Shown: positions 4,396 through 44,360 of the stretch, piece by piece | Layout: each line of letters starts with the position of its first letter | Position numbering within the stretch: position 1 is the stretch's first letter | Assembly: GCA_026770705.1 (NCBI GenBank) | Contig: JANJGN010000010.1 | Location: forward strand, 1,364,001 to 1,428,000 | Length of the DNA: 64,000 bases | Reading direction: 5' to 3' | Source: Isurus oxyrinchus | Lineage: Eukaryota | Made by a program: the position numbers and the translations under genes | The notes under the pieces: model-generated | The model's input: only the letters and a program-made list of their open reading frames with translations | What the model was told of the DNA's origin: nothing | The model's database searches: none

Positions 4396-4719
4396 GTAGC
4401 CTTTCAGAATCACAGAATCACAGATTGCAGAAGAAGCCCTTTGGCCCATTGAGTCTGCACCGACACGTGAGAAACACCTGACCTACCTACCTAATCCCAT
4501 TTACCAGCACTTGGCCCATAGCCTTGAATGTTATGATCTGCCAAGTGCTGATCCAGGTACTTTTTAAAGGATGTGAGGCAACCCACCTCCACCACCCTCC
4601 CAGACAGTGCATTCCAGACCGTCACCACCCTCTGCAGTCGATTTGTATCTGCCTCCGTCTGTCTTCTGCCAGTTCGTCTGTGGTGTCTGCATATTTCTCT
4701 GCAGCCCACAGCAGCCTCC

Positions 4720-5146
4720 ATGCCCCCACTCTCCCACACCCCCACACATCCACACTCCACACTCCCACACCCCCACACCCCCACACCCCCACACATCCAC
4801 ACTCCGCATCCCCACACGTCCCCACACTCCCACACTCCCACACTCCCACACCCCGACTCTCCCACACCCCCACACCCCCACACATCCACACTCCACATCC
4901 CCACACATCCCCACACACCCCCACACTCCCACACTCCCACACCCCCACTCTCCCACACCCCCACACATCCACACTCCACACCGCCACACATCCACACTCC
5001 ACACTCCCACACCCCCACTCTCCCACACCCCCACACATCTACACTCCACACCCCCATACATCCACACATCCACACCCCCATACATCCACACTCCACACCC
5101 CCACACCCCCACACGCCCACAAGCCCACACCTACATACCCACACCT
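4720..5146. repeat. Degenerate (CCCACAC/T/A)n ~8-bp simple repeat
   Basis: Direct inspection; source of several spurious HP/VCG-rich ORFs. Confidence 0.95.
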
Positions 5147-5623
5147 CCATTTGAAACTGCTGCCGCTCAAATGTGCCCATCAGCACCTGTGCCTCTGATT
5201 GGATGAAGCTCCCTCACATGACCCACCAGCCAAAGACTTTTGTTATGGGCCCACTGATTGGTTGATTTGTGGCTTCAGCTCGGCCCTATTCACAATTTAC
5301 TATTGAACAGGATTTTATTCTTAACATAAGTTATATTAGACTCTCCGGATATATTAACGATGAATATGAAATGGAATACGAGGGGTGGGTTAAAGGGGAG
5401 GCATCTCAGTGAAACTGAAAATCTGGCAATCTGTTGGGACACTGGGATGCCTTGTTCAAAAGCTGGAATGAACCAGCAAAACCGGAACAGCTGCTCACCC
5501 ATGTTTTGTGGCATTTTATCAAGTGCCTTTTGAAAGTTCATGTACACAACATCAACCACATTACAAAAACAGAATTACCTGGAAAAACTCAGCAGGTCTG
5601 GCAGCATCGGCGGAGAAGAAAAG

Positions 5624-5662
5624 AGTTGACGTTTCGAGTCCTCATGACCCTTCCACAGAACT
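5624..5662 (-). ncRNA. Minimal hammerhead ribozyme (core variant CUGUGGA)
   Basis: Reverse-complement copy of the 10501-10539 motif in the left arm. Confidence 0.78.
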
Positions 5663-6054
5663 TGATTTCGAGTCCAAGAAAGAGTTGAAATATAAGCTGG
5701 TTTAAGGTGTGTGTGTGGGGGGCGGAGAGATAGAGAGAGAGGGAGGGGTGTGGTTGTGTAGACAAACAAGCAGTGATAGAAGCAGATCATCAAAAGATGT
5801 CAGCGACAATGGTACAATAGAACACATAGGTGTTAAAGTTAAAGTTGGTGATATTATCTAAACGAATGTGCTAATTAAGAATGGATGGTAGGGCACTCAA
5901 GGTATAGCTCTAGTGGGGGTGGGGGGAGCATAAGAGATTTTAAAATATTTAAAAGTAATGGAAATAGGTGGGAAAAGAAAAATCTATATAATTTATAGGG
6001 AAAAAAAAGGGAAAAAGGGGGAAACAGAAAGGGGGTGGGGATGGGGGAGGGAGC

Positions 6055-7803
6055 TCACGACCTAAAGTTGTTGAATTCAATATTTAGACCGGAAGGCTGT
6101 AAGGTGCCTAGTCGGAAGATGAGGTGTTGTTCCTCCAGTTTGCGTTGGGCTTCACTGGAACAATGCAGTAAGCCAAGGACAGACATGTGGGCAAGAGAGC
6201 AGGGTGGAGTGTTAAAATGGCAAGCGACAGGGAGGTTTGGATCATTCTTGCGGACAGACCGCAGGTGTTCTGCAAAGCGGTCGCCCAGTTTACGTTTGGT
6301 CTCTCCAATGTAGAGGAGACCACATTGGGAACAACGAATGCAGTAGACTAAGTTGGGGGAAATGCAAGTGAAATGCTGCTTCACTTGAAAGGAATGTTTG
6401 GGCCCTTGGACGGTGAGGAGAGAGGAAGTGAAGGGGCAGGTGTTACATCTTTTGAGTGGGCATGGGGTGGTGCCATAGGAGGGGGTTGAGGAGTAGGGGG
6501 TGATGGAGGAGTGGACCAGGGTGTCCCGGAGGGAGCGATCCCTACGGAATGCCGATAAGGGGGGTGAAGGGAAGATGTGTTTGGTGGTGGCATCATGCTG
6601 GAGTTGGCGGAAATGGCGGAGGATGATCCTTTGAATGCGGAGGCTGGTGGGGTGATAAGTGAGGACAAGGGAGACCCTATCATGTTTCTGGGAGGGAGGA
6701 GAAGGCGTGAGGGCGGATGCGCGGGAGATGGGCCGGACACGGTTGAGGGCCCTGTCAACGACCGTGGGTGGAAAACCTCGGTTAAGGAAGAAGGAGGACA
6801 TGTCAGAGGAACCGTTTTTGAAGGTAGCATCATCGGAACAGATGCGACGAAGGCGAAGGAACTGGGACAATGGGATGGAGTCCTTACAGGAAGCGGGGTG
6901 TGAGGAGCTGTAGTCGAGGTAGCTGTGGGAGTCGGTGGGTTTGTAGTGGATATTGGTGGACAGTCTATCACCAGAGATTGAGACAGAGAGGTCAAGGAAG
7001 GGAAGGGAAGTGTCAGAGATGGACCACGTGAAAATGATGGAGGGGTGGAGATTGGAAGCAAAATTAATAAATTTTTCCAAGTCCCGACGAGAGCATGAAG
7101 CGGCACCGAAGTAATCATCGATGTACCGGAGAAAAAGTTGTGGAAGGGGGCCGGGGTAGGACTGCAACAAGGAATGTTCCACATACCCCATAAAGAGACA
7201 GACATAGCTGGGGCCCATGCGGGTACCCATAGCCACACCTTTTATTTGGAGAAAGTGAGAGGAGTTGAAGGAGAAATTGTTCAACGTGAGAACAAGTTCA
7301 GCCAGATGGAGGAGAGTAGTGGTGGATGGGGATTGTTCAGGCCTCTGTTCGAGGAAGAAGCTAAGGGCCCTCAGACCATCCTGATGGGGGATGGAGGTGT
7401 AGAGGGATTGGACGTCCATGGTGAAGAGGAAGCGGTTGGAGCCAGGGAACTGGAAATTGTTGATGTGACGTAAGGTGTCAGAGGAATCACGGATGTAAGT
7501 GGGAAGGGACTGGACAAGGGGAGAGAGAAGGGAGTCAAGATAACGAGAGATGAGTTCTGTGGGGCAGGAGCAAGCTGAGACGATCGGTCTACTGGGGCAG
7601 TTCTGTTTGTGGATTTTGGGTAGGAGATAGAAGCGGGCCGTCCGAGGTTGGGCGACTATCAGGTTGGAAGCTGTGAGAGGGAGATCCCCAGAGGAGATGA
7701 GGTCAGTGACAGTCCTGGAAACAATGGCTTGATGTTCAGTGGTGGGGTCATGGTCCAGGGAAAGGTAGGAGGAAGTGTCTGCGAGTTGACGCTCAGCCTC
7801 CAC
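6055..7803 (-). CDS. Penelope-like RT + GIY-YIG endonuclease, 5'-truncated but uninterrupted
   Basis: FYLLPKIHK, RPIVS, DVQSLYTSIP, GVAMGTRMGP, RYIDD, LPFLD, CCHH-type Cys/His and LVYCIRC..C..LYIGET.R.L..RF.EH...E...GLN. The GTG start is not a real start; the frame continues to the inversion junction at ~7913. Confidence 0.9.
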   Translation of the reverse strand: MEAERQLADTSSYLSLDHDPTTEHQAIVSRTVTDLISSGDLPLTASNLIVAQPRTARFYLLPKIHKQNCPSRPIVSACSCPTELISRYLDSLLSPLVQSLPTYIRDSSDTLRHINNFQFPGSNRFLFTMDVQSLYTSIPHQDGLRALSFFLEQRPEQSPSTTTLLHLAELVLTLNNFSFNSSHFLQIKGVAMGTRMGPSYVCLFMGYVEHSLLQSYPGPLPQLFLRYIDDYFGAASCSRRDLEKFINFASNLHPSIIFTWSISDTSLPFLDLSVSISGDRLSTNIHYKPTDSHSYLDYSSSHPASCKDSIPLSQFLRLRRICSDDATFKNGSSDMSSFFLNRGFPPTVVDRALNRVRPISRASALTPSPPSQKHDRVSLVLTYHPTSLRIQRIILRHFRQLQHDATTKHIFPSPPLSAFRRDRSLRDTLVHSSITPYSSTPSYGTTPCPLKRCNTCPFTSSLLTVQGPKHSFQVKQHFTCISPNLVYCIRCSQCGLLYIGETKRKLGDRFAEHLRSVRKNDPNLPVACHFNTPPCSLAHMSVLGLLHCSSEAQRKLEEQHLIFRLGTLQPSGLNIEFNNFRS

Positions 7804-7913
7804 GAGGTAGAGGTCAGTGCGCCAGACAACAACAGCACCACCCTTGTCAGCGGGTTTGATGACAATGTCAGGGTTGGACCTGAGAGAATGGAGTGCAGTA
7901 AGTTCAGAGAGAG

Positions 7914-10110
7914 TCCCAGCCCCAGCCGTGTATTCACTATACCCCCTGACCTTCCCCTCTCCGATGCTGAACGTTCAGTGCTCAGCAAAGGACTTAGTTT
8001 CATACCCTTACGCCCTCACCTCAATGAATTTCGGGCTCGGCATGATACTGAACTCTTCTTTCGCCGTCTTCGTCTCCGGGCTCACTTCTTCGGGCAGGAG
8101 TCCTCTCCCAATTCAACGGATCCTTTTACCCATCTCCAATATTCTCCCTCCACCTGGACCCCTCCCTCTGGATTCTTACCTTCTCTTGATCTTTTCATTG
8201 AGAACTGTCGGCGCGACATTAGTCGTCTCAATTTCTTTGCTCCTCTCACCCATTCTAACCTGTCTCTCTCTGAACTTACTGCACTCCATTCTCTCAGGTC
8301 CAACCCTGACATTGTCATCAAACCCGCTGACAAGGGTGGTGCTGTTGTTGTCTGGCGCACTGACCTCTACCTCGTGGAGGCTGAGCGTCAACTCGCAGAC
8401 ACTTCCTCCTACCTTTCCCTGGACCATGACCCCACCACTGAACATCAAGCCATTGTTTCCAGGACTGTCACTGACCTCATCTCCTCTGGGGATCTCCCTC
8501 TCACAGCTTCCAACCTGATAGTCGCCCAACCTCGGACGGCCCGCTTCTATCTCCTACCCAAAATCCACAAACAGAACTGCCCCAGTAGACCGATCGTCTC
8601 AGCTTGCTCCTGCCCCACAGAACTCATCTCTCGTTATCTTGACTCCCTTCTCTCTCCCCTTGTCCAGTCCCTTCCCACTTACATCCGTGATTCCTCTGAC
8701 ACCTTACGTCACATCAACAATTTCCAGTTCCCTGGCTCCAACCGCTTCCTCTTCACCATGGACGTCCAATCCCTCTACACCTCCATCCCCCATCAGGATG
8801 GTCTGAGGGCCCTTAGCTTCTTCCTCGAACAGAGGCCCGAACAATCCCCATCCACCACTACTCTCCTCCGTCTGGCTGAATTGTTCTCACGTTGAACAAT
8901 TTCTCCTTCAACTCCTCTCACTTTCTCCAAATAAAAGGTGTGGCTGTGGGTACCCGCATGGGCCCCAGCTATGCCTGTCTCTTTATGGGGTATGTGGAAC
9001 ATTCCTTGTTGCAGTCCTACTCCGGCCCCCTTCCACAACTTTTTCTCCGGTACATCGATGATTACTTCGGTGCCGCTTCATGCTCTCGTTGGGACTTGGA
9101 AAAATTTATTAATTTTGCTTCCAATCTCCACCCCTCCATCATTTTCACGTGGTCCATCTCTGACACTTCCCTTCCCTTCCTTGACCTCTCTGTCTCAATC
9201 TCTGGTGATAGACTGTCCACCAATATCCATTACAAACCCACCGACTCCCACAGCTACCTCGACTACAGCTCCTCACACCCCGCTTCCTGTAAGGACTCCA
9301 TCCCATTCTCCCAGTTCCTTCGCCTTCGTCGCATCTGTTCCAATGATGCTACCTTCAAAAACAGTTCCTCTGACATGTCCTCCTTCTTCCTTAACCGAGG
9401 TTTTCCACCCACGGTCGTTGACAGGGCCCTCAACCGTGTCCGGCCCATCTCCCGCGCATCCGCCCTCACGCCTTCTCCTCCCTCCCAGAAACATGATAGG
9501 GTCCCCCTTGTCCTCACTTATCACCCCACCAGCCTCCGCATTCAAAGGATCATCCTCCGCCATTTCCGCCAACTCCAGCATGATGCCACCACCAAACACA
9601 TCTTCCCTTCACCCCCCCTTATCGGCATTCCGTAGGGATCGCTCCCTCCGGGACACTCTGGTCCACTCCTCCATCACCCCATACTCCTCAACCCCCTCCT
9701 ATGGCACCACCCCATGCCCACGCAAAAGATGTAACACCTGCCCCTTCACTTCCTCTCTCCTCACCGTCCAAGGGCCCAAACATTCCTTTCAAGTGAAGCA
9801 GCATTTCACTTGCATTTCCCCCAACTTAGTCTACTGCATTCATTGTTCCCAATGTGGTCTCCTCTACATTGGAGAGACCAAACGTAAACTGGGCGACCGC
9901 TTTGCAGAACACCTGCGGTCTGTCCGCAAGAATGATCCAAACCTCCCTGTCGCTTGCCATTTTAACACTCCACCCTGCTCTCTTGCCCACATGTCTGTCC
10001 TTGGCTTGCTGCATTGTTCCAGTGAAGCCCAACGCAAACTGGAGGAACAACACCTCATCTTCCGACTAGGCACCTTCCGGTCTGAATATTGAGTTCAACA
10101 ACTTTAGGTC
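7914..10110 (+). pseudogene. Penelope-like RT/GIY-YIG copy with frameshifts
   Basis: Same protein split over ORFs 7648-8895, 8892-9635 and 8938-10092. Relative to the left copy: 1-nt deletion ~8881, +1 C ~9615 and 8-nt deletion ~10076. Confidence 0.9.
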
Positions 10111-10500
10111 GTGAGCTCCCTCCCCCATCCCCACCCCCTTTCTGTTTCCCCCTTTTTCCCTTTTTTTTCCCTATAAATTTTATAGATTTTTCTTTTCCCA
10201 CCTATTTCCATTACTTTTAAATATTTTAAAATCTCTTATGCTCCCCCCACCCCCACTAGAGCTGTACCTTGAGTGCCCTACCATCCATTCTTAATTAGCA
10301 CATTCGTTTAGATAATATCACCAACTTTAACTTTAACACTTGTGTTCTTTTGTACCATTGTCGCTGACATCTTTTGATGATCTGCTTCTATCACTGCTTG
10401 TTTGTCTACACAACCACCTCTCTCTCTCTCTATCTCTCCGCCCCCCACACACACACCTTAAACCAGCTTATATTTCAACTCTTTCTTGGACTCGAAATCA

Positions 10501-10539
10501 AGTTCTGTCGAAGGGTCATGAGGACTCGAAACGTCAACT
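10501..10539 (+). ncRNA. Minimal type I hammerhead ribozyme (core variant CUGUCGA)
   Basis: AGUU-CUGUCGA-A-GGGUC-AUGAG-GACUC-GAAA-CGUC-AACU: stem I AGUU/AACU, stem II GGGUC/GACUC, palindromic ACGU stem III, GUC cleavage triplet (after 10535). Confidence 0.8.
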
Positions 10540-10649
10540 CTTTTCTTCTCCGCCGATGCTGCCAGACCTGCTGAGTTTTTCCAGGTAATTCTGTTTTTGT
10601 TTTGGATTTCCAGCATCCGCAGTTTTGTTTTGTCTTTATCAACCACATT

Positions 10650-10870
10650 ACCCTTATCTACTCTCTCTGTTACCTTATCAAAAAAACCCAGCAAGTTAGT
10701 TAAGCACAATTTGCCCTTAACAAATCCTTAATTAACCTGCATTTGCCTAAATGACTATTAATTTTGTCCTGAATTCATTTCTAGAAAATTCCCTACCATT
10801 GAGGTGAAACTGACTGGCTGGTGGTTGTTGAACTTATCTTTACCCTCTTTTTTGGACAAGGGTGTAACAA
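10650..10870 (-). mobile_element. CR1 RT fragment, continued at 5500-5562 across the Penelope insertion
   Basis: CLTNLLGFFDKVTERVDKGNVVD joins VVYMNFQKALDK. Confidence 0.8.
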
Positions 10871-10871
10871 T

Positions 10872-11232
10872 TGCAAGAATATGCCAAAGACTGTTGATCC
10901 CAGAACACAGCCCTGTTTGATCCCACTGTGGATCTCTGAGGGTTCCCATGTTTCCCTGTCCATGCTGACCTTACCCATCTTGTTGTCATGGAAACAGGGG
11001 ATCACATTGATCAGTTTTGGAGGGCAGCCAATTTTCTCCAGCAGCTTAAATGGATAGCCTCTCCTCACATCGTCGAATGCCTTGCTGAGATCGATGAAGG
11101 CAATATATAGCGGTCTCCTCTGCTCTTGGTATTTCTCCTGTAGCTGTGGGACTGAGAAGATCATGTCAATTGTAAAACTTCCAGTTCTGAAACCACACTG
11201 GGACTTGGGGTCGATGCGTTCAGTCAGGTAAA
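10872..11232 (-). mobile_element. RTE-clade LINE RT fragment
   Basis: MIFSV.QLQEKY.EQRRPLYIAFIDLSKAFD..IGCPPKL; G.KQGCVL. Confidence 0.8.
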
Positions 11233-11242
11233 TACTTGTCTA

Positions 11243-11475
11243 TTGCTGAAAAAAGAGACATGTCAACGATTTTTATCTTGAACTGATCAGGGCACTCACA
11301 AGAATACCAATATAAGGGGTAAGGTAACTATTTGTGGTCTAGAGGAAGAGAGTTCTGATTAGTTGGCAAGTGGTGTTGCCATGGAGAATGCACCACTGAT
11401 GGTGACTGACAGTTAACTGCCAAGCAATGTGCGAAATTTAAATCAGGCAGTTTGACCCTGCTTGGTCAAGGTTGA
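11243..11475 (-). mobile_element. Degenerate copy of the 42095-42400 repeat family
   Basis: Shared blocks gctgaaaaaagagacat, ttgccatgga(g/a)aatgcacc and gatggtgactga(c/g)agttaactgccaagca. Confidence 0.55.
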
Positions 11476-11479
11476 CTCG

Positions 11480-12640
11480 CTCCTCAGGGCAAATGCTGCC
11501 TTGATGTCCAAGGGCAGTCACTCTCACCTCACCTCAGGAGTTCAGCTCTTTTATCCATGTTTGAACCAAGGCTGTAATGAGGTCAGAAGCTGAGTGGCCC
11601 TGGCGGAACCCAAAATGAGCATCAGTGAGCAGGCTAATGCTGAGTAAGGGCCGGTTGATAGCACTGTTGATGACCCCTTCCATCACTTTACTGATGATGG
11701 AGAGTAATTGATGGGGCATAATTGGCTGGGCTGGATCTATCCTGATTTTTGTGTACAGGACATACCTGGGCAATTTTCCACATAGCCGGGTAGATGCCAG
11801 TGTTGTAGCTGTACTGGAACAGCTTGGCTAGGGGCACGGCACGTTCTGGAGCACCGGTTTTCAGTACCATTGCTGGAATATTGTCAGGGCCCATAGCCTT
11901 TGCAGTATCCTTCAGTCATTTCTTGATATCATGTGGAGTGAATCAAATTGGTTGAAGACTGGCATCTATTTTGCTGATGACCTCCAGAGATGGATCATCC
12001 ACTCAGCACTCCTGGCTGAAGATGGTTGCGAATGCTTCAGCCTTACCTTATGCATTAATGTGCTGAGCTCCTCCATCATTGAGGATGGGGATATTTGTGG
12101 AGCCTCTTCCTCCAGTGAGATGCTTAATTGTCCACCACCATTCACGACTGAATGTGGCAGGACTGCGGAGCTTAGATTTGATCTGTTGGTTGTGGGATTG
12201 CTTAGCCCTGTCTATCATTTGCTGCTTATGCTGTTTGGCACGCAAGTAGTCATATTCTTTTATAGCTTCATCAGGTTGACACCTCATTTTTAGGTGTGCT
12301 TGGTGCTGCTCCTGGCACGTCCTCCTGCACTCTTCATTGTACCATGGTTGATTCCCTGACTTGATGGTAATGGTAGAGTAGGGGATATGCCAGGCCATGA
12401 GGTTATAGATTGTGTTTGAGTACAATTCTGCTGCTGCTGATGGCCCACAGCACCTCATGGATGCCCAATCTTGAGTTGCTAGATCTGTTCGAAACCTATC
12501 CCATTTAGCACAGTGGTAGTGGCACACAACATGATGGAGGGCATTCTCAATGCAAAGGCGGGACTTTGTCTTCATAATGACTGTGTGGAGGTCACTCCTA
12601 CTAATACTGTCATGGACAGATGCATCTGCGGCAGTCAGGT
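11480..12640 (-). mobile_element. L2/CR1-group LINE ORF2 fragment (second family)
   Basis: GPDNIPAMVLK..PLAKLFQYSY..WKIAQVCPVHK, HFGFRQGHS. Confidence 0.8.
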
Positions 12641-29085: not shown

Positions 29086-29470
29086 CAAGTAGCTAGAGGA
29101 AGGCACTTGTCCTGCTCAGTGATGTTGTCTCATTTTTAATATTGGATTTGTTGGATCCATCTGTCTGAGCTATCAGTTATACTTTCAAGTTTCAGCTTCT
29201 ATTGACCTTCAAATTAATTTTGATTTTAGCTGTTTACTATTATTAAATTGTTCAGCAGTTTGAAATGGTAACAGCAAACAGTTATCTTAATGTTTTTCTT
29301 TTTATCATTACATACAGTGGTCATATATCCCTGCTTTCAGTCTGTGTTTAGTGGTTTAGAAGCAAAAGAGAAGTAAAAGCACTTAGTGTTGCCCTTGTTA
29401 TTGTCACTTCACTGACATGATATAAAACAGCAGGTAACCTGTGTAGCAAAAATCAATCATTACAGATAAA

Positions 29471-29879
29471 AGCAAAATACTGTGGATGCTGGAAAACTGA
29501 AACAAAAACAAAAATTGCTGGAAAAACTCAGCAGGTCTGACAGAATCTGTGGAGAACAAGGACAGAGTTAACGTTTGGAGTCCAGATGACTTCTTCAGAA
29601 CTAAAGCGAAGTAGAAATCTGGTGAAATATATACTGTTTAAGGGGGAGTGGGACAGGTGAAGCTGAATAGAAGACCAGTGATAGCTGGAGGCAAAGGAGA
29701 GATTGCAAAAGATGTCATAAACAAAAGATCGAAGGGGTGTTGATGGTGGTGATATTGACTAAAGGAGGTGATAATGGTGACATTAAGAGTAGAAAGCAGG
29801 ATGAGCAAGTGACAGATGGCCCTAGTGGGGGTGGGGTGGGGGGAGGGGATTATGTGATAGAAAAGATCAAAATAGGCTA
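29471..29879 (-). mobile_element. Older Penelope-like terminal-repeat fragment with hammerhead (29566-29602, core CUGAAGA)
   Basis: Related to the left terminus of the large element. Flanked by AATCATTACA(G/A)ATAAA direct repeats at 29455-29470 and 29880-29895. Confidence 0.75.
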
Positions 29880-33140: not shown

Positions 33141-33326
33141 ATGTTCTAAATGAACAAGATAACCAATACATCAATGCATTTGCTACTATCCGCAAAGTTC
33201 AATCTTAAGTCCTTTATTAACACTCACATCCTCCCAAAACTTGGTCAAATTCTTCAAAGTGGTTAACAAAAACAGAATTACCTGGAAAAACTCAGCAGGT
33301 CTGGCAGCATTGGCGGAGAAGAAACG

Positions 33327-33365
33327 AGTTGACGTTTCGAGTCCTCATGACCCTTCGACAGAACT
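33327..33365 (-). ncRNA. Minimal hammerhead ribozyme (CUGUCGA)
   Basis: Same 39-nt motif on the minus strand. Confidence 0.75.
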
Positions 33366-33376
33366 TGTTCTATCGT

Positions 33377-33415
33377 AGTTCTGTGGAAGGGTCATGAGGA
33401 CTCGAAACGTCAACT
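33377..33415 (+). ncRNA. Minimal hammerhead ribozyme (CUGUGGA)
   Basis: agttctgtggaagggtcatgaggactcgaaacgtcaact. Confidence 0.75.
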
Positions 33416-34479
33416 CTTTTCTTCTCCGCCGATGTTGCCAGACCTGCTGAGTTTTTCCAGGTAATTCTGTTTTTGTTTTGGATTTCCAGTATCCGCAGTT
33501 TTTTTGTTTTTATCTTCAAAGTGGTTAGTTATCTTATTATGAATCTCATTTTAAATTAAAACCGGGGCTTCAATATTAAGGAGAGACTTTCTGCTGGTTT
33601 ATGCCAGTGATTTCAGTGCAACCTGGGTGGAATTGTACAAACCACAAAATAATTGAGGCATTTTAAATGTGCATGACGCCCAAAACTACTTTGTGTTTTG
33701 TGTGATCTTTTACACTGGGTTCAGTATTCAGTCTGACCCCCTACACCATCTTCCAACTAATTGCGCTTTTTGGAAAAGCTCCTCAGACTGTGCTCTATTT
33801 TAGACATTGCAGGTACTAAGTTTAAGTTTTTTTTAGAGTTTATCATGTCAAAAAATTTTTACTAAGAAACTGAGGTGTAAATTAAGAAACTATTAAATAG
33901 TTCTGTGTAGTTTTTTAAAGTAATTTTTAGTGATTTAAAACCAAGTTACATACAGATGTAGGATTGCACACCCTTATTACAAATGCTTATTTTTGGTGAT
34001 AAACCTATTTTCAGTTATATTAATAAAGTTGTATCAGGTTAGCACTCTTAAATCCGTCTATGAATACTCTTTAATGGAAAGAAACGACAGATTTACGTTC
34101 TATAACGCTGCCTAATTGTGCTGGTTCATTGAAGATTTTACATTTCTGATTAAACAAATTATTTTTAGCAGAAACTTGGACTGTAACCTAACCCGTGTAA
34201 TTCTGAGCTGTAATTTCCTGATTCTACCAAAGTGGAAACTCTGCTCCAATTTAATATGATTTTTAGCAAAAAACATTTTCTAAAAAGAATCACCCAAGCT
34301 GCATGTTGTGGAAGACAGTGGTTATGTTTATATGAAGTTGTTTGTGTTATAATGCAAATACACACTAATATTTATTCAGTAACCAGACAGATTCAGGTGG
34401 CAGCTCAATAATAATGGTAAATAGATGATAGAAGGTGCTCAGGATCAGTTCTAAAAAGCATTGTACTCTTGATTATAAG

Positions 34480-36168: not shown

Positions 36169-37253
36169 TTCTTGCTGCCTAATTAAAGTGTACTGTATTG
36201 AACCACTGAAAGCATGATGTGGGTTCACTTGACACAGCCAGGGAGATGGCATCGTCCTGCCACCACTATCTGATACAGATATTCTGCAGCAATGTAGTTA
36301 GCTGACAAGACTCAGTGGATGAATGGTGAACCGTGCCATGTTCATTATCCCATCCACTTCCCTCTTGCCATCCATCCATCCCTTCACCAAATCCCTCACA
36401 GCTGCACACTGTCACAGCATAACAGTGTGACTAATAGGGAGGAAACCAGTAGGGATATCAGTGGTCATGGAGCGCAGCACGCTACCTTGGAATGACAGCT
36501 GCAACATGCATGGCACCTAGCATTTGCACAGAGCATTTTAACAGTAATCATTGATGATTTCCAGAAAATGGTTAGTGTATGTAAGCACAGAAAAGTGAAT
36601 GAGAGCACTGTAATCTGAATGGCTCACAATCCTTTTTACCTTACATTTTTATTGATAGGATGTCAAACAGAGGAGATGTGGGGAAAGGGATGGGTCCAGC
36701 TGCCCCATGATTTTCTGATCAGGACCTTCAGGTGTTAGCGGAAGAGGTTCAGAGGAGGAGATTTATCCTGTAGCTTGCTGGTCCTCAGTATCCACCTGCC
36801 ACAACCAAGAAAGCCTGAATGCAATTTGCAGCCAGGGTGAACGCAGCAGGAGAGCATGAGCATTCTGGATTCAGTGCAGAAAAAGGTTCAATGACCTGCT
36901 ACATTCTGGCAACGTTAGTAGCTTGACTCATCCACACAGAGGTCTATGGGAAGGGTCATATCTGCATGCTGCAGCTACGGTGCAAGACCTGGCACATACC
37001 TCTGCTTTAGCTTTGATGCTTGTATGTGTAAGCAGCTCATGTAGGTACATGGAGAACAGATGTGAAAGAGCACTGTGATGCACAGACACGATGAAGAGAA
37101 ATTTCACTGCATTCACGAGATATCAGTTAACATTAATTCAGGTTGTTGTTGCAGTCGAAAAAGGGTGAAGAACACTAAGGAGATGGCCCGGTCTGGGGTG
37201 GGTCAGCCTGGCTGAGAACAATTCACTCAGTTGAATAACTGGCCATGGAGATT
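36169..37253 (+). repeat. Left arm of a 1085-bp inverted duplication (contains decayed Harbinger Myb/SANT exon)
   Basis: Reverse complement of 40839-41923 with few substitutions. Confidence 0.92.
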
Positions 37254-40200
37254 GCCAGGATCCTTGAGCAACTGTTAGTGATGGTAAATCACTGGTAGCA
37301 GTTGACAAAGGCAGTGTTAAAATCACCTTAGCACATGGTAGTAATGGTAGAGGTCATGATGTCAGTTCACTGAGCACAATGGGACCTGTGGACAGGGAGT
37401 GCAAGGATGGTGTTATGTGATAAGGGCAGCACGAGCATGGTTAAAGACAGTGACATGCATCAGAGTGTGCTTTCACAATGGAATGGTTATACCTAAATAT
37501 CTCACTGTGTCCCACACAGGTCTCAACTTTGCTTGCTCACCATCCCCCAGCAACCCCAGTCTACCTCATCCCTCAGGTATCAGGAGGGGGAAGAGATATC
37601 CAAGGGGGCAGCATCAGAGCTTACTAGCCCATACTCCGCCAACTCAGATACCAGTGCATCGGGGGAATGTAGCACATGTAGAGTCAGTGGCATAGGGTGA
37701 AAGTCACCGCATCAGAGTGCAGGAGGAGGAGTCAGAGTCAGAGATAGCAGTGTACAGTGCCCTTGGAGGAGGGAGGAAAGTCACAATGATGCTCCAGTGG
37801 GAAGGAACATAGAGCCTCAAAAGTTACCTTTTGGGACACAATATTTGCCCAATCAGCAGCCGATGTATGCACATCTGCAGAGTTCCCTGAGGCAGTGGGA
37901 GCTGTAAGACTGCAAAAAGAGGAGTCCATTACCATTCTGAGCTCCACATTGGCTCAGGGACTCATCTCCATCAGCTCCGATCATGAGAGATTGGCCACAC
38001 ATGCAGCAATACTCAGAGTGGATGCAAGAGCAGCGATTTAGCCAGGCTCCCTCAGTAGCCTGCATCAGTCCAGGGTATGAGCACTGTCATCACACTGTTG
38101 AAATGGTGGCTGTTGGAACAGACAACTGCTACACATCTGCAGCCAGCTCCAACAGCCACACGTGAAGGCCAACCCAGGGCTGTGGAGGTAACTGAGGAGG
38201 GTGAAGGTACCAGAAGCTTCTCAACACTCTCATTTTCTTCCACATCACCAGTCTCTCCGTCAGATCCCTCGTCTGCTCCACAGCTGCCAGTGACCACGGC
38301 TGCCCATGCAGAGATGCAGAGGCCACAGACTGAAGGTCCCCAAACGGGTGCCTGCACAATGAAGCCACATATAGGCCAAGAAGTGAGCAGCCTGCCTCTG
38401 AGGCAACATGGGGGGAGCATTGTAGGAGTGTGCATGAGCGCAGGGCACCTAGAGCACTAATGGGTTCACCGTGGTTACACTTTTCACATTGAGCACTTCT
38501 TGAATGAATTTACTTACACATGTATGGAGCTCGGTGTATGTTTGTACACTACAGACCTCCCCTCCTGGCCATGCCTCGCAGCTCCTCTTCATTCGCAACC
38601 TCCTCATCTTCATCCAGTTCTGAATCGTCAAAATGGACAGGGGCTCCTCATTTTCCTTCTCCTCAAGAGTTTGGAGCTCTGCCCATGGCCTCGTATTCAT
38701 TGATTTGCATGCCCCTTCACTGCACAATGTTGTGCAGCATGCAGCTCACCATTACTATTCTTGATACCCTTGCTGGAGCATATTGCAGACCTCCACCTGA
38801 GCAATGGAGACACGTGAAGCACGTTTATAAAATGCCAATTGCCTGCTCAATGGTGCACCCGGTAACAACATGGCTGCTATTGTAGTTGCACTCTGCCTCC
38901 ATCTAAAGGGGGTCTTTAGCCAGGTTCTTAAGGAGTAGCCCTTGTCCCTGAGAAGCCAACCACTGATCTGTGTTGGTGGCTGAAATAGCTGAGAGAGCTA
39001 GGAACTACTTAGTCTACAAACATATGAACTAGGAGCAGGAGTAGGCCACTCAGCCCTTCGAGTCTGCTCCACCATTCAATTAGATCATGGCTGATCTGAC
39101 TGTAACCTCCCACCTACCCTGGTAAACCTTCATCCCATTGTCTATCAAGGATCTGCCTTGGAAACATTCAAAGACTCTGCTTCCACTGCATTTTGATGAA
39201 GGAAGTTCCAAAGACTCACTACCACCTGAGAGGAAAAAATAGCTCTCGCCCTTATTTTTAAACCCATAGTTCTAGATTCTCCCACAAGAGGAAACATCCT
39301 TTCCACATCCACCCAGTCAAGATCCCTCAGGATCTTATATGTTTCAATCAAGTCACCTCTTACTCATCTAAACTCTAGCGGATACAAGCCTAGCCTGTCC
39401 AATCTTTCCATATAAGGCAACTACCCATTCCTGATTTTAGTCTAGTAAATCTTCTCTGGACTATTTCTAATGTATTTACATCCTTCCCTAAATAAGGAGG
39501 CCAATACTGTACAAAGTACTCCAAATGTGGTCCCACCGGTGTCCTGTACAACTGAAGCATAGCCTCACAATTTTTGTATTCAGTTCCCTTTGCAATGCAA
39601 TGAACAATAACATTCTATTAGCTTTCCTAATTACCCCTTGTACCTGCATACTATACTTTTGTGACTCATGCACTAGGACACCCAGAACCCGCTTAACCTC
39701 AGAGCTCTGCAATTTCTCACCATTTAAATAATATGCTTCTTTTTGGACAATTTCCCATTTGCCCACATTATACTCCATTTGCCAGATCTTTGCCCACTCA
39801 CTTAATCTATCTATGTCATTTTGTAGCCTCATGTCTTCTTCAAAACTAACTTTCCTACCTATCTTTGTATCATCAGCAAATTTAGCAACCACCCCTTTGA
39901 TCCCAAATGATGAGTTGGAGCCTTTATGGCAACTGGGTTGCAATCAATAACACCGTGCACATGAGGGAAGCCTGCTAATTGGGCAAAGGCTGTGGCTCGC
40001 TGCGTCTGAGATGCAAAATCTACAGGGAAATTGATGTGTTCCCCAATACGAGCAAACAGGGCACTATTTACTGCCTTAATGCAGCTGTGTGCTGCTGGCT
40101 GGGATATACCAGACAGGTCTCTGGATGATCCCTAGAAAGATCCTGAGACAAAAAAATTGAGAGCAGTGGTCATCTTCACAGCCACTGGCAGGGCATGGGG

Positions 40201-40500
40201 TTCACCATCTCAGTCACCTTTGGCACTGGTTCTCTGTCATATTGAGGTAAGATGTACGCCCTTCCCACGGGGTAGTACCTACTTGTCCTGCCTCTCCTCA
40301 TCCTTTCTGATGCGAGGGCAGCAGCCTCTGCCTCCTGTCCCTCTGCCCTCCCTCTGGCCACCAGCTGCTCACGGTGACTCACTCACTCTATCTACGAGGG
40401 TGCCATACCCATCTTGTATCTTTCACACAAAGTGCAATGCACATCCTCAAGTATGAAGTTCTTCCTGGCACCTAGATGCACGAGTCAGTAGGGGCAAAAA
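36680..40500. mobile_element. Decayed PIF/Harbinger transposon (Myb/SANT gene plus, transposase minus), interrupted by CR1
   Basis: Plus ~36700-36910: FSDQDLQVLAEEVQRR...WIQCRKRFNDL. Minus ~38720-38890: YNSSH...IEQAIGIL...GGGLQY...CMLHN. Minus ~39920-39980: AGFPHVHGVIDCNPVAIKAP. Confidence 0.7.
39020..39900 (-). mobile_element. CR1 LINE 3' fragment
   Basis: KFADDTK..LSEWAKIWQMEYNVGK. Confidence 0.85.
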
Positions 40501-40838
40501 AAGATTGCCCTGCTAGCCCACCAGCCCCACCCTCCTACTCCCTTGGCTTAAGGCAAGACAGTTGGTATTGAGTTTGTGCCAATTCTGGACAGTGAAGACA
40601 AGTTTAAAGCTAATTCCATAGCAGTAGCTACAACGGGTACCCTGGCTATCCAAAGAAATGCACAAAATTCAGACCTGTTCTTACCAGGTCTTCTGTGTAC
40701 ACTTCGGGATCCATGCTTGGAGTCTACCAAAATCCCACTGGAGTACGGCAGCTGTTGATGTAAATGGCCAGCTGCCTCCAAGAAACACTCCATGCCATTC
40801 CTGCCCCCTTAAAAATGGGAAGTGCCGTGTTCAGGGGT

Positions 40839-41923
40839 AATCTCCATGGCCAGTTATTCAACTGAGTGAATTGTTCTCAGCCAGGCTGACCCACCCCAGA
40901 CCGGGCCATCTCCTTAGTGTTCTTCACCCTTTTTCGACTGCAACAACAACCTGAATTAATGTTAACTGATATCTCGTGAATGCAGCGAAATTTCTCTTCA
41001 TCGTGTCTGTGCATCACAGTACTCTTTCACATCTGTTTTCCATGTACCTACATGAGCTGCTTACACATACAAGCATCAAAGCTAAAGCAGAGGTATGTGC
41101 CAGGTCTTGCACCGTAGCTGCAGCATGCAGATATGACCCTTCCCATAGACCTCTGTGTGGATGAGTCAAGCTACTAACGTTGCCAGAATGTAGCAGGTCA
41201 TTGAACCTTTTCCTGCACTGAATCCAGAATGCTCATGCTCTCCTGCTGCGTTCACCCCGGCTGCAAATTACATTCAGGCTTTCTTGGTTGTGGCAGGTGG
41301 ATACTGAGGGCCAGCAAGCTCCAGGATAAATCTCCTCCTCTGAACCTCTTCCGCTAACACCTGAAGGTCCTGATCAGAAAATCATGGGGCAGCTGGACCC
41401 ATCCCTTTCCCCACATCTCCTCTGTTTGACATCCTATCAATAAAAATGTAAGGTAAAAAGGGTTGTGAGCCATTCAGATTACAGTGCTCTCATTCACTTT
41501 TCTGTGCTTACATACACTAACCATTTTCTGGAAATCATCAATGATTACTGTTAAAATGCTCTGTGCAAATGCTAGGTGCCATGCATGTTGCAGCTGTCAT
41601 TCCAAGGTAGCGTGCTGCGCTCCACGACCACTGATATCCCTACTGGTTTCCTCCCTATTAGTCACACTGTTATGCTGTGACAGTGTGCAGCTGTGAGGGA
41701 TTTGGTGAAGGGATGGATGGATGGCAAGAGGGAAGTGGATGGGATAATGAACATGGCATGGTTCACCATTCATCCACTGAGTCTTGTCAGCTAACTACAT
41801 TGCTGCAGAATATCTGTATCAGATAGTGGTGGCAGGATGATGCCATCTCCCTGGCTGTGTCATGTGAACCCACACCATGCTTTCAGTGGTTCAATACAGT
41901 ACACTTTAATTAGGCAGCAAGAA
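40839..41923 (-). repeat. Right arm of the 1085-bp inverted duplication
   Basis: ORFs 36928-37116(-) and 40976-41164(+) translate almost identically. Confidence 0.92.
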
Positions 41924-43269: not shown

Positions 43270-44360
43270 TGAGGAAATATCATCTCTGCATCCAGTCTGT
43301 CCGCCCCTGTCAGAATTTTATACGTTTCAAAGAGATCCTCTCTCATTCTTCTAATCTCCAGTGAATATAGGCCTAGCCGGCCCAATCCCTTCTCATTTGA
43401 CAATCCTGCCATCCCAGGAATCAGTCTGGTGAACCTTCGCTGCACTCCCTCTATGACAAGTATGTCCTTTCTTAGGTAAGGAGACCAAAACTGCACACAA
43501 TACTCCAGGTGTGGCCTCACCAAGGGCCTATACAGCTGCAGTAAGACATCCTTGCTCCTGTACTCAAGTCCTCTTGCAATGAAGGCCAACATACCATTTG
43601 CCTTCTTAACTGTTCGCTGCACCTGCATGCTTGCTTTCAGTGATTGGTGTACAAGGACACCCAGGTCCCTTTATACATCAACATTTCCCAATCTTATCGT
43701 CATTTAAATAATACTCTGCCATTCTGTTTTTCCTATCAAAGTGGATAACTTCACACTTATCCATCTTATACTGCATCTGCCATGTATTTGCCCACTCACT
43801 CAACCTGTCTAATTAAAGGAAAATACTGCGGAGGCTGGAAATCTGAAATAAAAACAGAAAATGCTGGAAAAACTCAGCAGGTCTGTTAGCATCTGTGGAG
43901 AGAGAAACAGTTAACGTTTCAAGTCCATAGGACAGCTCTGAAGAAGAGTCAAACGCACTCGAAAATGTTAACTCTGTTTCTGCCTCCACAGATGTTGTCA
44001 GATCTGCTGAGTTTTTCCAGCATTTTCTGTTTTTAAATCACCTTGAAATCTCTTAACGCCTTCCTCATTGCTCATATTCCCACCAAGTTTCATGTCATCA
44101 GCAAACTTGTAAATATTACATTTAGTTCCCTCATTCAAATCATTGGTATATATTGTGAATAACTGGGGCCCAAGCACCGATCCCTGTGGTACCCCACTAG
44201 TCACCGCCTGCCACCCTGAAAAAGACCTGTTTATTCCTACTCGCTGTTTCTTGTCTGCTAACCAATTCTCAATCCATGCCAATATATGACCCCAATCCCA
44301 TGTGCTTTAATTACACACTAATCCCTTACGTGTGACTGTATCAAAAACTTTCTGAAAATT
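43270..44360 (-). mobile_element. CR1 LINE RT fragment (interrupted at 43813-44035)
   Basis: SGVPQGSVLGPQLFTIY, KFADD, VRPHLEYCVQFWSP. Confidence 0.88.
43813..44035. mobile_element. Older palindromic Penelope derivative inserted in CR1; hammerhead at 43934-43973 (plus, CUGAAGA)
   Basis: Inverted arms aaaaacagaaaatgctggaaaaactcagcag / ctgctgagtttttccagcattttctgttttt, tail on the left, CUGAAGA-A-GAGU..ACUC-GAAA. Confidence 0.75.

Follow-up and report, generated by a model that had tools for sequence, protein, structure and literature searches.

The 5-kb unit in the window (the whole 64,000-nt stretch of DNA that was analysed) is made of two 5′-truncated Neptune-type Penelope-like copies that lie head to head inside an old CR1 element, and it is one dead integration event. 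The layout itself has already been published; what is new here are numbers on a family-level rule that pairs a tailed end with a tailless one, together with a modest two-template signal. For inverted, one-tailed insertions, published work provides two start sites for reverse transcription but not the way in which the starts are paired. Arms of this length contain sites in sufficient number to address whether one RNA or two served as template. We favor, with moderate confidence, a reading in which an endonuclease-RT working as a pair made cuts in the two target strands, 14 nt from each other, and started one cDNA at each of two sites separated by ~37 nt, the templates probably being two related RNAs; the priming is deduced from the junctions, and the mechanism as a whole is read from end products.

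Anatomy of the insertion and its target

From left to right, the unit consists of a target-site duplication (TSD), a tailless copy in reverse orientation, a tailed copy in forward orientation and the second TSD (Table 1). The mirrored arms described in an earlier note on this DNA (5563–7913 and 8264–10600) are present as claimed, and the spacer between them is 350 bp long as stated there, but it consists of the right copy's unpaired 5′ part rather than foreign DNA. The two copies meet in a blunt junction (7913/7914) without microhomology or filler, and only the right arm carries 37 extra nt, whose sequence matches a region upstream of the ORF in tandem units. The alignment of the two arms, ~2,340 bases long, contains five indels and 24 substitutions (17 transitions, 6 at CpG), a divergence of ~1%. 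A 2-bp deletion in the right arm is unique genome-wide, and its 8-bp deletion occurs in 2 places genome-wide, the other carrier being a copy only 97–98% alike; both deletions are therefore probably later damage.

Table 1. Coordinates of the features discussed, as positions of the window.
Feature	Position	Strand	Basis
Left TSD, 14 bp, last 2 nt shared with element end	5551..5564	+	
Left arm: 5′-truncated copy, tailless end at +65 from predicted hammerhead cut site	5563..7913	-	
Left-arm minimal hammerhead-like motif, mirror of 10501–10539	5624..5662	-	by eye
Open 5′-truncated frame: RT, CX4CxxC linker and GIY-YIG	6055..7913	-	
Inner 574 bp, identical to 8264–8837	7340..7913	-	
Right copy, 5′-truncated	7914..10637	+	
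Unpaired 5′ extension of right copy (the "spacer")	7914..8263	+	
TATA-like sequence, putative promoter (role inferred)	10469..10475	+	
Hammerhead-like motif, minimal type I, with the cut predicted after 10535	10501..10539	+	by eye, against features given in PMC4209133
Tail, 37 nt: U-rich tracts flank a short GGAU/AUCC inverted repeat	10601..10637	+	
Right TSD, 14 bp	10638..10651	+	
Fragment of an old CR1-type LINE that the insertion splits; resumes left of 5551	10652..10800	-	
Short sibling insertion, one-tailed head-to-head, 15-bp duplication	33265..33511		

A single TSD encloses both arms, with none at the junction, which bears out the earlier note except that the duplication measures 14 bp (ATCAACCACATTAC, the final two bases of which also fit the element end) and not 12 bp. 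Within the window, ATCAACCACATT occurs only at 5551 and 10638. The label of the target, which we take to be CR1, comes from an RT motif. Its two flanks, queried separately, are collinear in 8 other CR1-type copies and overlap by 13–14 nt in 7 of these 8, which confirms both the size of the TSD and the split of the CR1 element that the note had described. An assembly artefact, or two separate neighbouring insertions, would agree with the lack of a contig bridging 7913/7914 among the matches listed from four DNA contig sets, whose contigs are short; in the second organism the flank had no cover, so its result carries no weight. Against these explanations stand the one TSD around both arms, the collinear CR1 flanks, arms that are ~1% different, and a layout that recurs in 61 sampled groups, and we regard their probability as negligible. 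The enclosing TSD, the flanks and the end-pairing tests all agree on the single integration event that had been proposed.

A TSD was detected in 56 of the 61 head-to-head groups and is 13–15 bp long in 50 of those 56. In the 53 insertions that remain when L023 and TSDs under 13 bp are left out, the first base right of the TSD is G or C in 45, and of the two bases that follow, the first is T in 31 and the second in 30; the mirror bias on the left is weaker (31/53). The resulting weak target dyad, AAS-N14-STT, is sharper on the tailless side. Read from the flanks, it would be consistent with a pair of symmetric nicks that leave 3′ overhangs of 14 nt, in agreement with the two-strand cutting and predicted dimer reported in PMC11167929.

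Other repeats lie elsewhere in the window. A low-complexity CCCACAC-type tract occupies 4600–5150, left of the Penelope insertion. A second inverted repeat (36169–37256 and 40836–41923; 1,088 bp, 99%) is unrelated to Penelope and is possibly a recent local inversion or duplication. The fragments inside 36169–41923 resemble, by a motif, a Harbinger-type transposase, and a CR1 piece interrupts them; a Pfam search with one piece of them gave no match.

Identity and abundance of the family

Counts made by sequence-pattern matching across the 4.98-Gb genome gave 97,121 exact matches to a 40-nt piece of the element end and 8,003 to a 42-mer from the RT region. Closer comparison drew on a locus sample made up of the window, three search loci and, on contig C1, 120 stretches around the matches listed first. 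By design the sample favors long copies, and it stands for the beginning of a single contig. It contains 61 head-to-head groups, several of which (such as L106, L122, L129, and L130) have both arms near or above 2.3 kb, as well as many insertions with one arm only. The head-to-head layout is thus ordinary for the family, and this copy is not special. The 247-bp element to which the earlier note likened its geometry is indeed a one-tailed head-to-head insertion as well (Table 1). Older relatives of the Penelope end, ~80% identical, lie at 43815–44034 and 29464–29602, the first of them also head-to-head and one-tailed.

A full unit taken from a tandem array elsewhere in the genome measures 3,325 bp and has a 926-aa frame, of which the left-arm frame lacks ~300 N-terminal residues; the frame of the right copy is broken near 8880, 9612, and 10073. 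Tandem arrays of 2–4 units with long open frames were seen at L091+L092, L112+L113, and L124 and belong to one very young subfamily, the units of L112+L113 showing 5–7 differences per 3,325 bp. Profile searches with the left arm matched RVT_1 (E 3e-8) and GIY-YIG (E 7e-4; 20.4 bits, below the 22.6 cut-off), and a PDB sequence search returned 0 matches at E ≤ 0.01. The family has the traits of EN+ Penelope-like elements, namely a single ORF with RT plus, at its C-terminus, a GIY-YIG domain (the endonuclease match lying under the cut-off) and a tandem or inverted pseudo-LTR with a 30–40-nt tail. An autonomous MITE-like or TIR DNA transposon was rejected, as inner ends vary from insertion to insertion (+47 to −3068) with no fixed internal structure.

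The linker between RT and endonuclease reads CPRKRCNTC in the right arm and CPLKRCNTC in the left. A CX2-5CxxC motif at this place is described as a feature of Neptune, shared with Nematis (PMC8557442), so its presence points to the Neptune or Nematis type and away from the Penelope/Poseidon clade. By this motif, which Nematis shares, we place the family as putatively Neptune-type.

All end positions below are counted from the predicted cut of the hammerhead-like motif. By eye, the motif has helix I, helix II, GAAA, and a palindromic ACGT, with a core of CUGUCGA in place of CUGANGA. An Rfam scan of 5000–11500 gave zero matches at E ≤ 1, and on folding, the stretch 10495–10640 is not unusually stable (z 0.88), its minimum-energy fold containing no hammerhead. 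The 5′ ends of short arms (59 ends) cluster at −28 to −37, and hammerhead cleavage as the template 5′ end is ruled out, with 0/59 at +1. The TATA-like sequence sits ~30 nt before this cluster (~10498–10507), and the clustered ends may represent run-off at the transcription start. Full units also contain an 88-nt GT..AG stretch, a candidate intron that spans both start sites. Such an intron would account for intron retention, but it is unsupported: four contig sets, only guessed to be RNA, held no matching joint, and a search run without a positive control found 0 spliced genomic copies.

Pairing of a tailed with a tailless end

In 60 of the 61 head-to-head groups a tailed end is paired with a tailless one; both ends of L023 are tailless, and no group is tailed at both. 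For most tailless ends the position is +64 to +74, and for tailed ends, by alignment, +91 to +114, with an offset of ~35–40 nt across copies. In 6 of the 60 one-tailed insertions the short end lies at about +48 to +51 instead of about +65 to +70. Mapping termini across the sampled copies upholds the one-sided tail of the earlier note but not an offset of exactly 37 nt. Next to the ends of the minor tailless class (L034, L075, L098, L110, L126, L145, and L150) lie a third U-rich tract and a site resembling a splice donor (CAG/GTAATT); this class may mark a third RT start.

Across the genome, pattern matching found 9,852 elements that are short and head-to-head, and 8,778 matches of this kind with the tail motif at one side. 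Two-tailed short elements number 77 by pattern, compared with ~1,955 expected if the ends were independent; the patterns cover short elements only and are not strict subsets of one another, so the ~25-fold shortage is approximate. Some of the ten two-tailed elements among these 77 that were sampled (L151–L160) appear to be members of related subfamilies. The shortage is a hard constraint, directly testable in the existing in vitro system. A tail often at one end only has been described (PMC8557442), and in the available sections of PMC3846280 and PMC8557442 the tail is optional or often one-sided, given without a count; here it is counted. A literature search, covering papers other than the older D. 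virilis Penelope ones, found no published count of end pairing or template number.

Under the reading we favor, a dimer would nick 5′ of S-T-T on each strand and leave 14-nt 3′ overhangs; of its active sites, one would begin near +65, at the U-rich tract, and the other near +100 to +105. The choice of start would be coupled, each insertion receiving one of each. Both cDNAs would stop early, and host repair would join their ends to give the head-to-head junction, while the short 200–250-bp elements would arise by the same reaction at the starts nearest the RNA 5′ end, with run-off at the transcription start. Templates would usually come from one source locus and, in this copy, from two related loci; after insertion, each arm would mutate and patches would be converted arm to arm. 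A more specific version, in which an asymmetric dimer with two RNAs bound cuts the dyad target so as to leave 14-nt overhangs and has to begin one cDNA per site, is tentative and on the whole doubtful.

The earlier proposal that opposite strands of the target are primed, each at its own fixed position on the RNA, fits every test made here, and two RT starts have been found in vitro for a relative (PMC11167929). The protein in that work, from a Poseidon element, cuts both strands and extends them; two internal starts bound the tail, and a dimer is predicted. In its available sections the start site does not differ between strands, the element is a Poseidon and not a Neptune, and neither coupling nor the number of templates is addressed. 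According to PMC8557442, a single RT start could also suffice if the endonuclease later trims the tail off one end while resolving an intermediate. Trimming would give strict asymmetry, and cleavage by the D. virilis endonuclease depends on the tail (cited in PMC11167929), but the two starts mapped in vitro speak against it. So do the slippage-like extra A or AAAAC units that tailless ends carry beside the target, which look like traces of priming, and we consider trimming very improbable.

Relative arm length bears on a further alternative, in which cDNA primed at the tail snaps back, copies itself and stops ~37 nt short, or a route of antisense self-priming is taken (PMC3846280). One tail per insertion would then be automatic, and this copy taken alone fits, with its tailed arm the longer and the inner 574 bp identical. 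Fold-back, however, demands a tailed arm whose 5′ extent equals or exceeds that of its partner, and among 51 two-arm insertions (L150 left out) the longer arm is the tailless one in 14 and the tailed one in 13, the two lying within 20 nt of each other in 24. Later inversion between arms could scramble which is longer, so that fold-back is largely refuted unless inversions are near saturation. It also predicts arms identical at birth, the junction here lacks microhomology, and the tailless end, which is found on single-arm insertions too, has its beginning at a U-rich tract. We judge it improbable, and return to two-ended priming.

In LINE-1 twin priming, both target strands prime cDNA in one event, leaving an inversion inside one TSD. 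There the second primer is internal and the pieces do not overlap, whereas here both starts lie at the same end and overlap is near-total. Closer in layout are Pen2a_Av/Pen2 elements of Adineta vaga (PMC3846280; scheme in PMC8557442), which are also head-to-head, with a 30–40-nt tail at one end, one TSD, and tandem source arrays. The inverted copy spans 2.35 kb and most of the ORF here compared to a 200-bp pLTR in A. vaga, and TSDs are 13–15 bp vs. 8–10 bp (PMC3846280). Poseidon of Anolis carolinensis, studied in vitro, likewise starts RT at two internal sites that bound the tail, cuts both strands and extends them, does not use the hammerhead cut site as a template end, and has AT-rich targets (PMC11167929). 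It differs in clade, the protein here having the Neptune/Nematis linker, and in the place of the tail, which lies inside the ORF start in Poseidon and before the first ATG here.

Number of templates

Arm haplotypes were compared in 25 pairs, with CpG-type and simple-repeat columns masked, the L150 grouping corrected, and L117 added. At 81 family-polymorphic non-CpG sites, discordance within insertions is 65/1,156 calls (5.6%) vs. 26.9% between insertions, and for 13 young pairs it is 5.5% vs. 12.1%. Arms are thus far more alike within than between insertions, which indicates that most insertions draw both arms from one source. A nearest-neighbour test, in which the partner ranked first for 28 of 48 arms, was superseded, having taken in the mis-grouped L150 pair and simple-repeat columns.

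Three of the 25 pairs have a clear excess of discordance. This copy is discordant at 7/67 family-polymorphic sites, where 0.3–1 would be expected, which favors two templates; against the background expectation of 0.31, P is 7e-5 even at 3.1-fold higher mutability. L069, with a 13-bp TSD, has 6/32 (0.15 expected). The excess is strongest in L130 (11/68), which was downgraded as the best two-template case because its TSD is missing; as it also abuts another copy, it may be two events. Four of the 7 discordant sites in this copy follow two haplotypes of other young copies, while the full 7-site pattern of either arm is absent from the other sampled copies. Both options offered in the earlier note, two RNA templates or later divergence, probably hold together: most differences between the arms are private and look post-insertion, and seven fall on family-polymorphic sites and are linked.

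The arms also share 6 rare alleles, three of them inside the inner 574-bp tract (7340–7913), where each is seen in 0–1 of about 80 other copies. Under an even spread of differences, an inner 574 bp free of them has P of about 2e-4, and its identity, together with the private alleles, makes later arm-to-arm conversion or copying likely. The simplest reading of these haplotypes would be two related templates followed by patchy arm-to-arm conversion, with conversion from outside copies the main rival. In that rival, two-ended priming always uses one RNA, and haplotype mismatch arises later by conversion from other genomic copies or by recurrent mutation. One RNA would explain the one-tail rule simply, and 22 of the 25 pairs show no clear discordance excess. 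The shared rare alleles and the identical tract further imply that DNA-level overwriting happened or that the arms were copied from each other, and ~8,000 long copies are possible donors; a later conversion mosaic can mimic two templates, which counts against two RNAs here. On the other side, the discordant sites span −1529 to −188 and are interleaved with shared tracts, so that several ectopic events would be needed, and L069 has a similar excess. We hold the one-RNA account unlikely and keep two related templates as the preferred reading for this copy.

If true, loading of two RNAs would allow different source loci to be joined within one insertion and to recombine in the manner of retroviruses; the mosaic haplotypes seen in young subfamilies would then be accounted for. 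Another head-to-head insertion, L144:2151–7861, has arms that both span the pLTR-ORF junction and both lack the same ~960-bp internal stretch, which indicates that both were copied from one internally deleted source.
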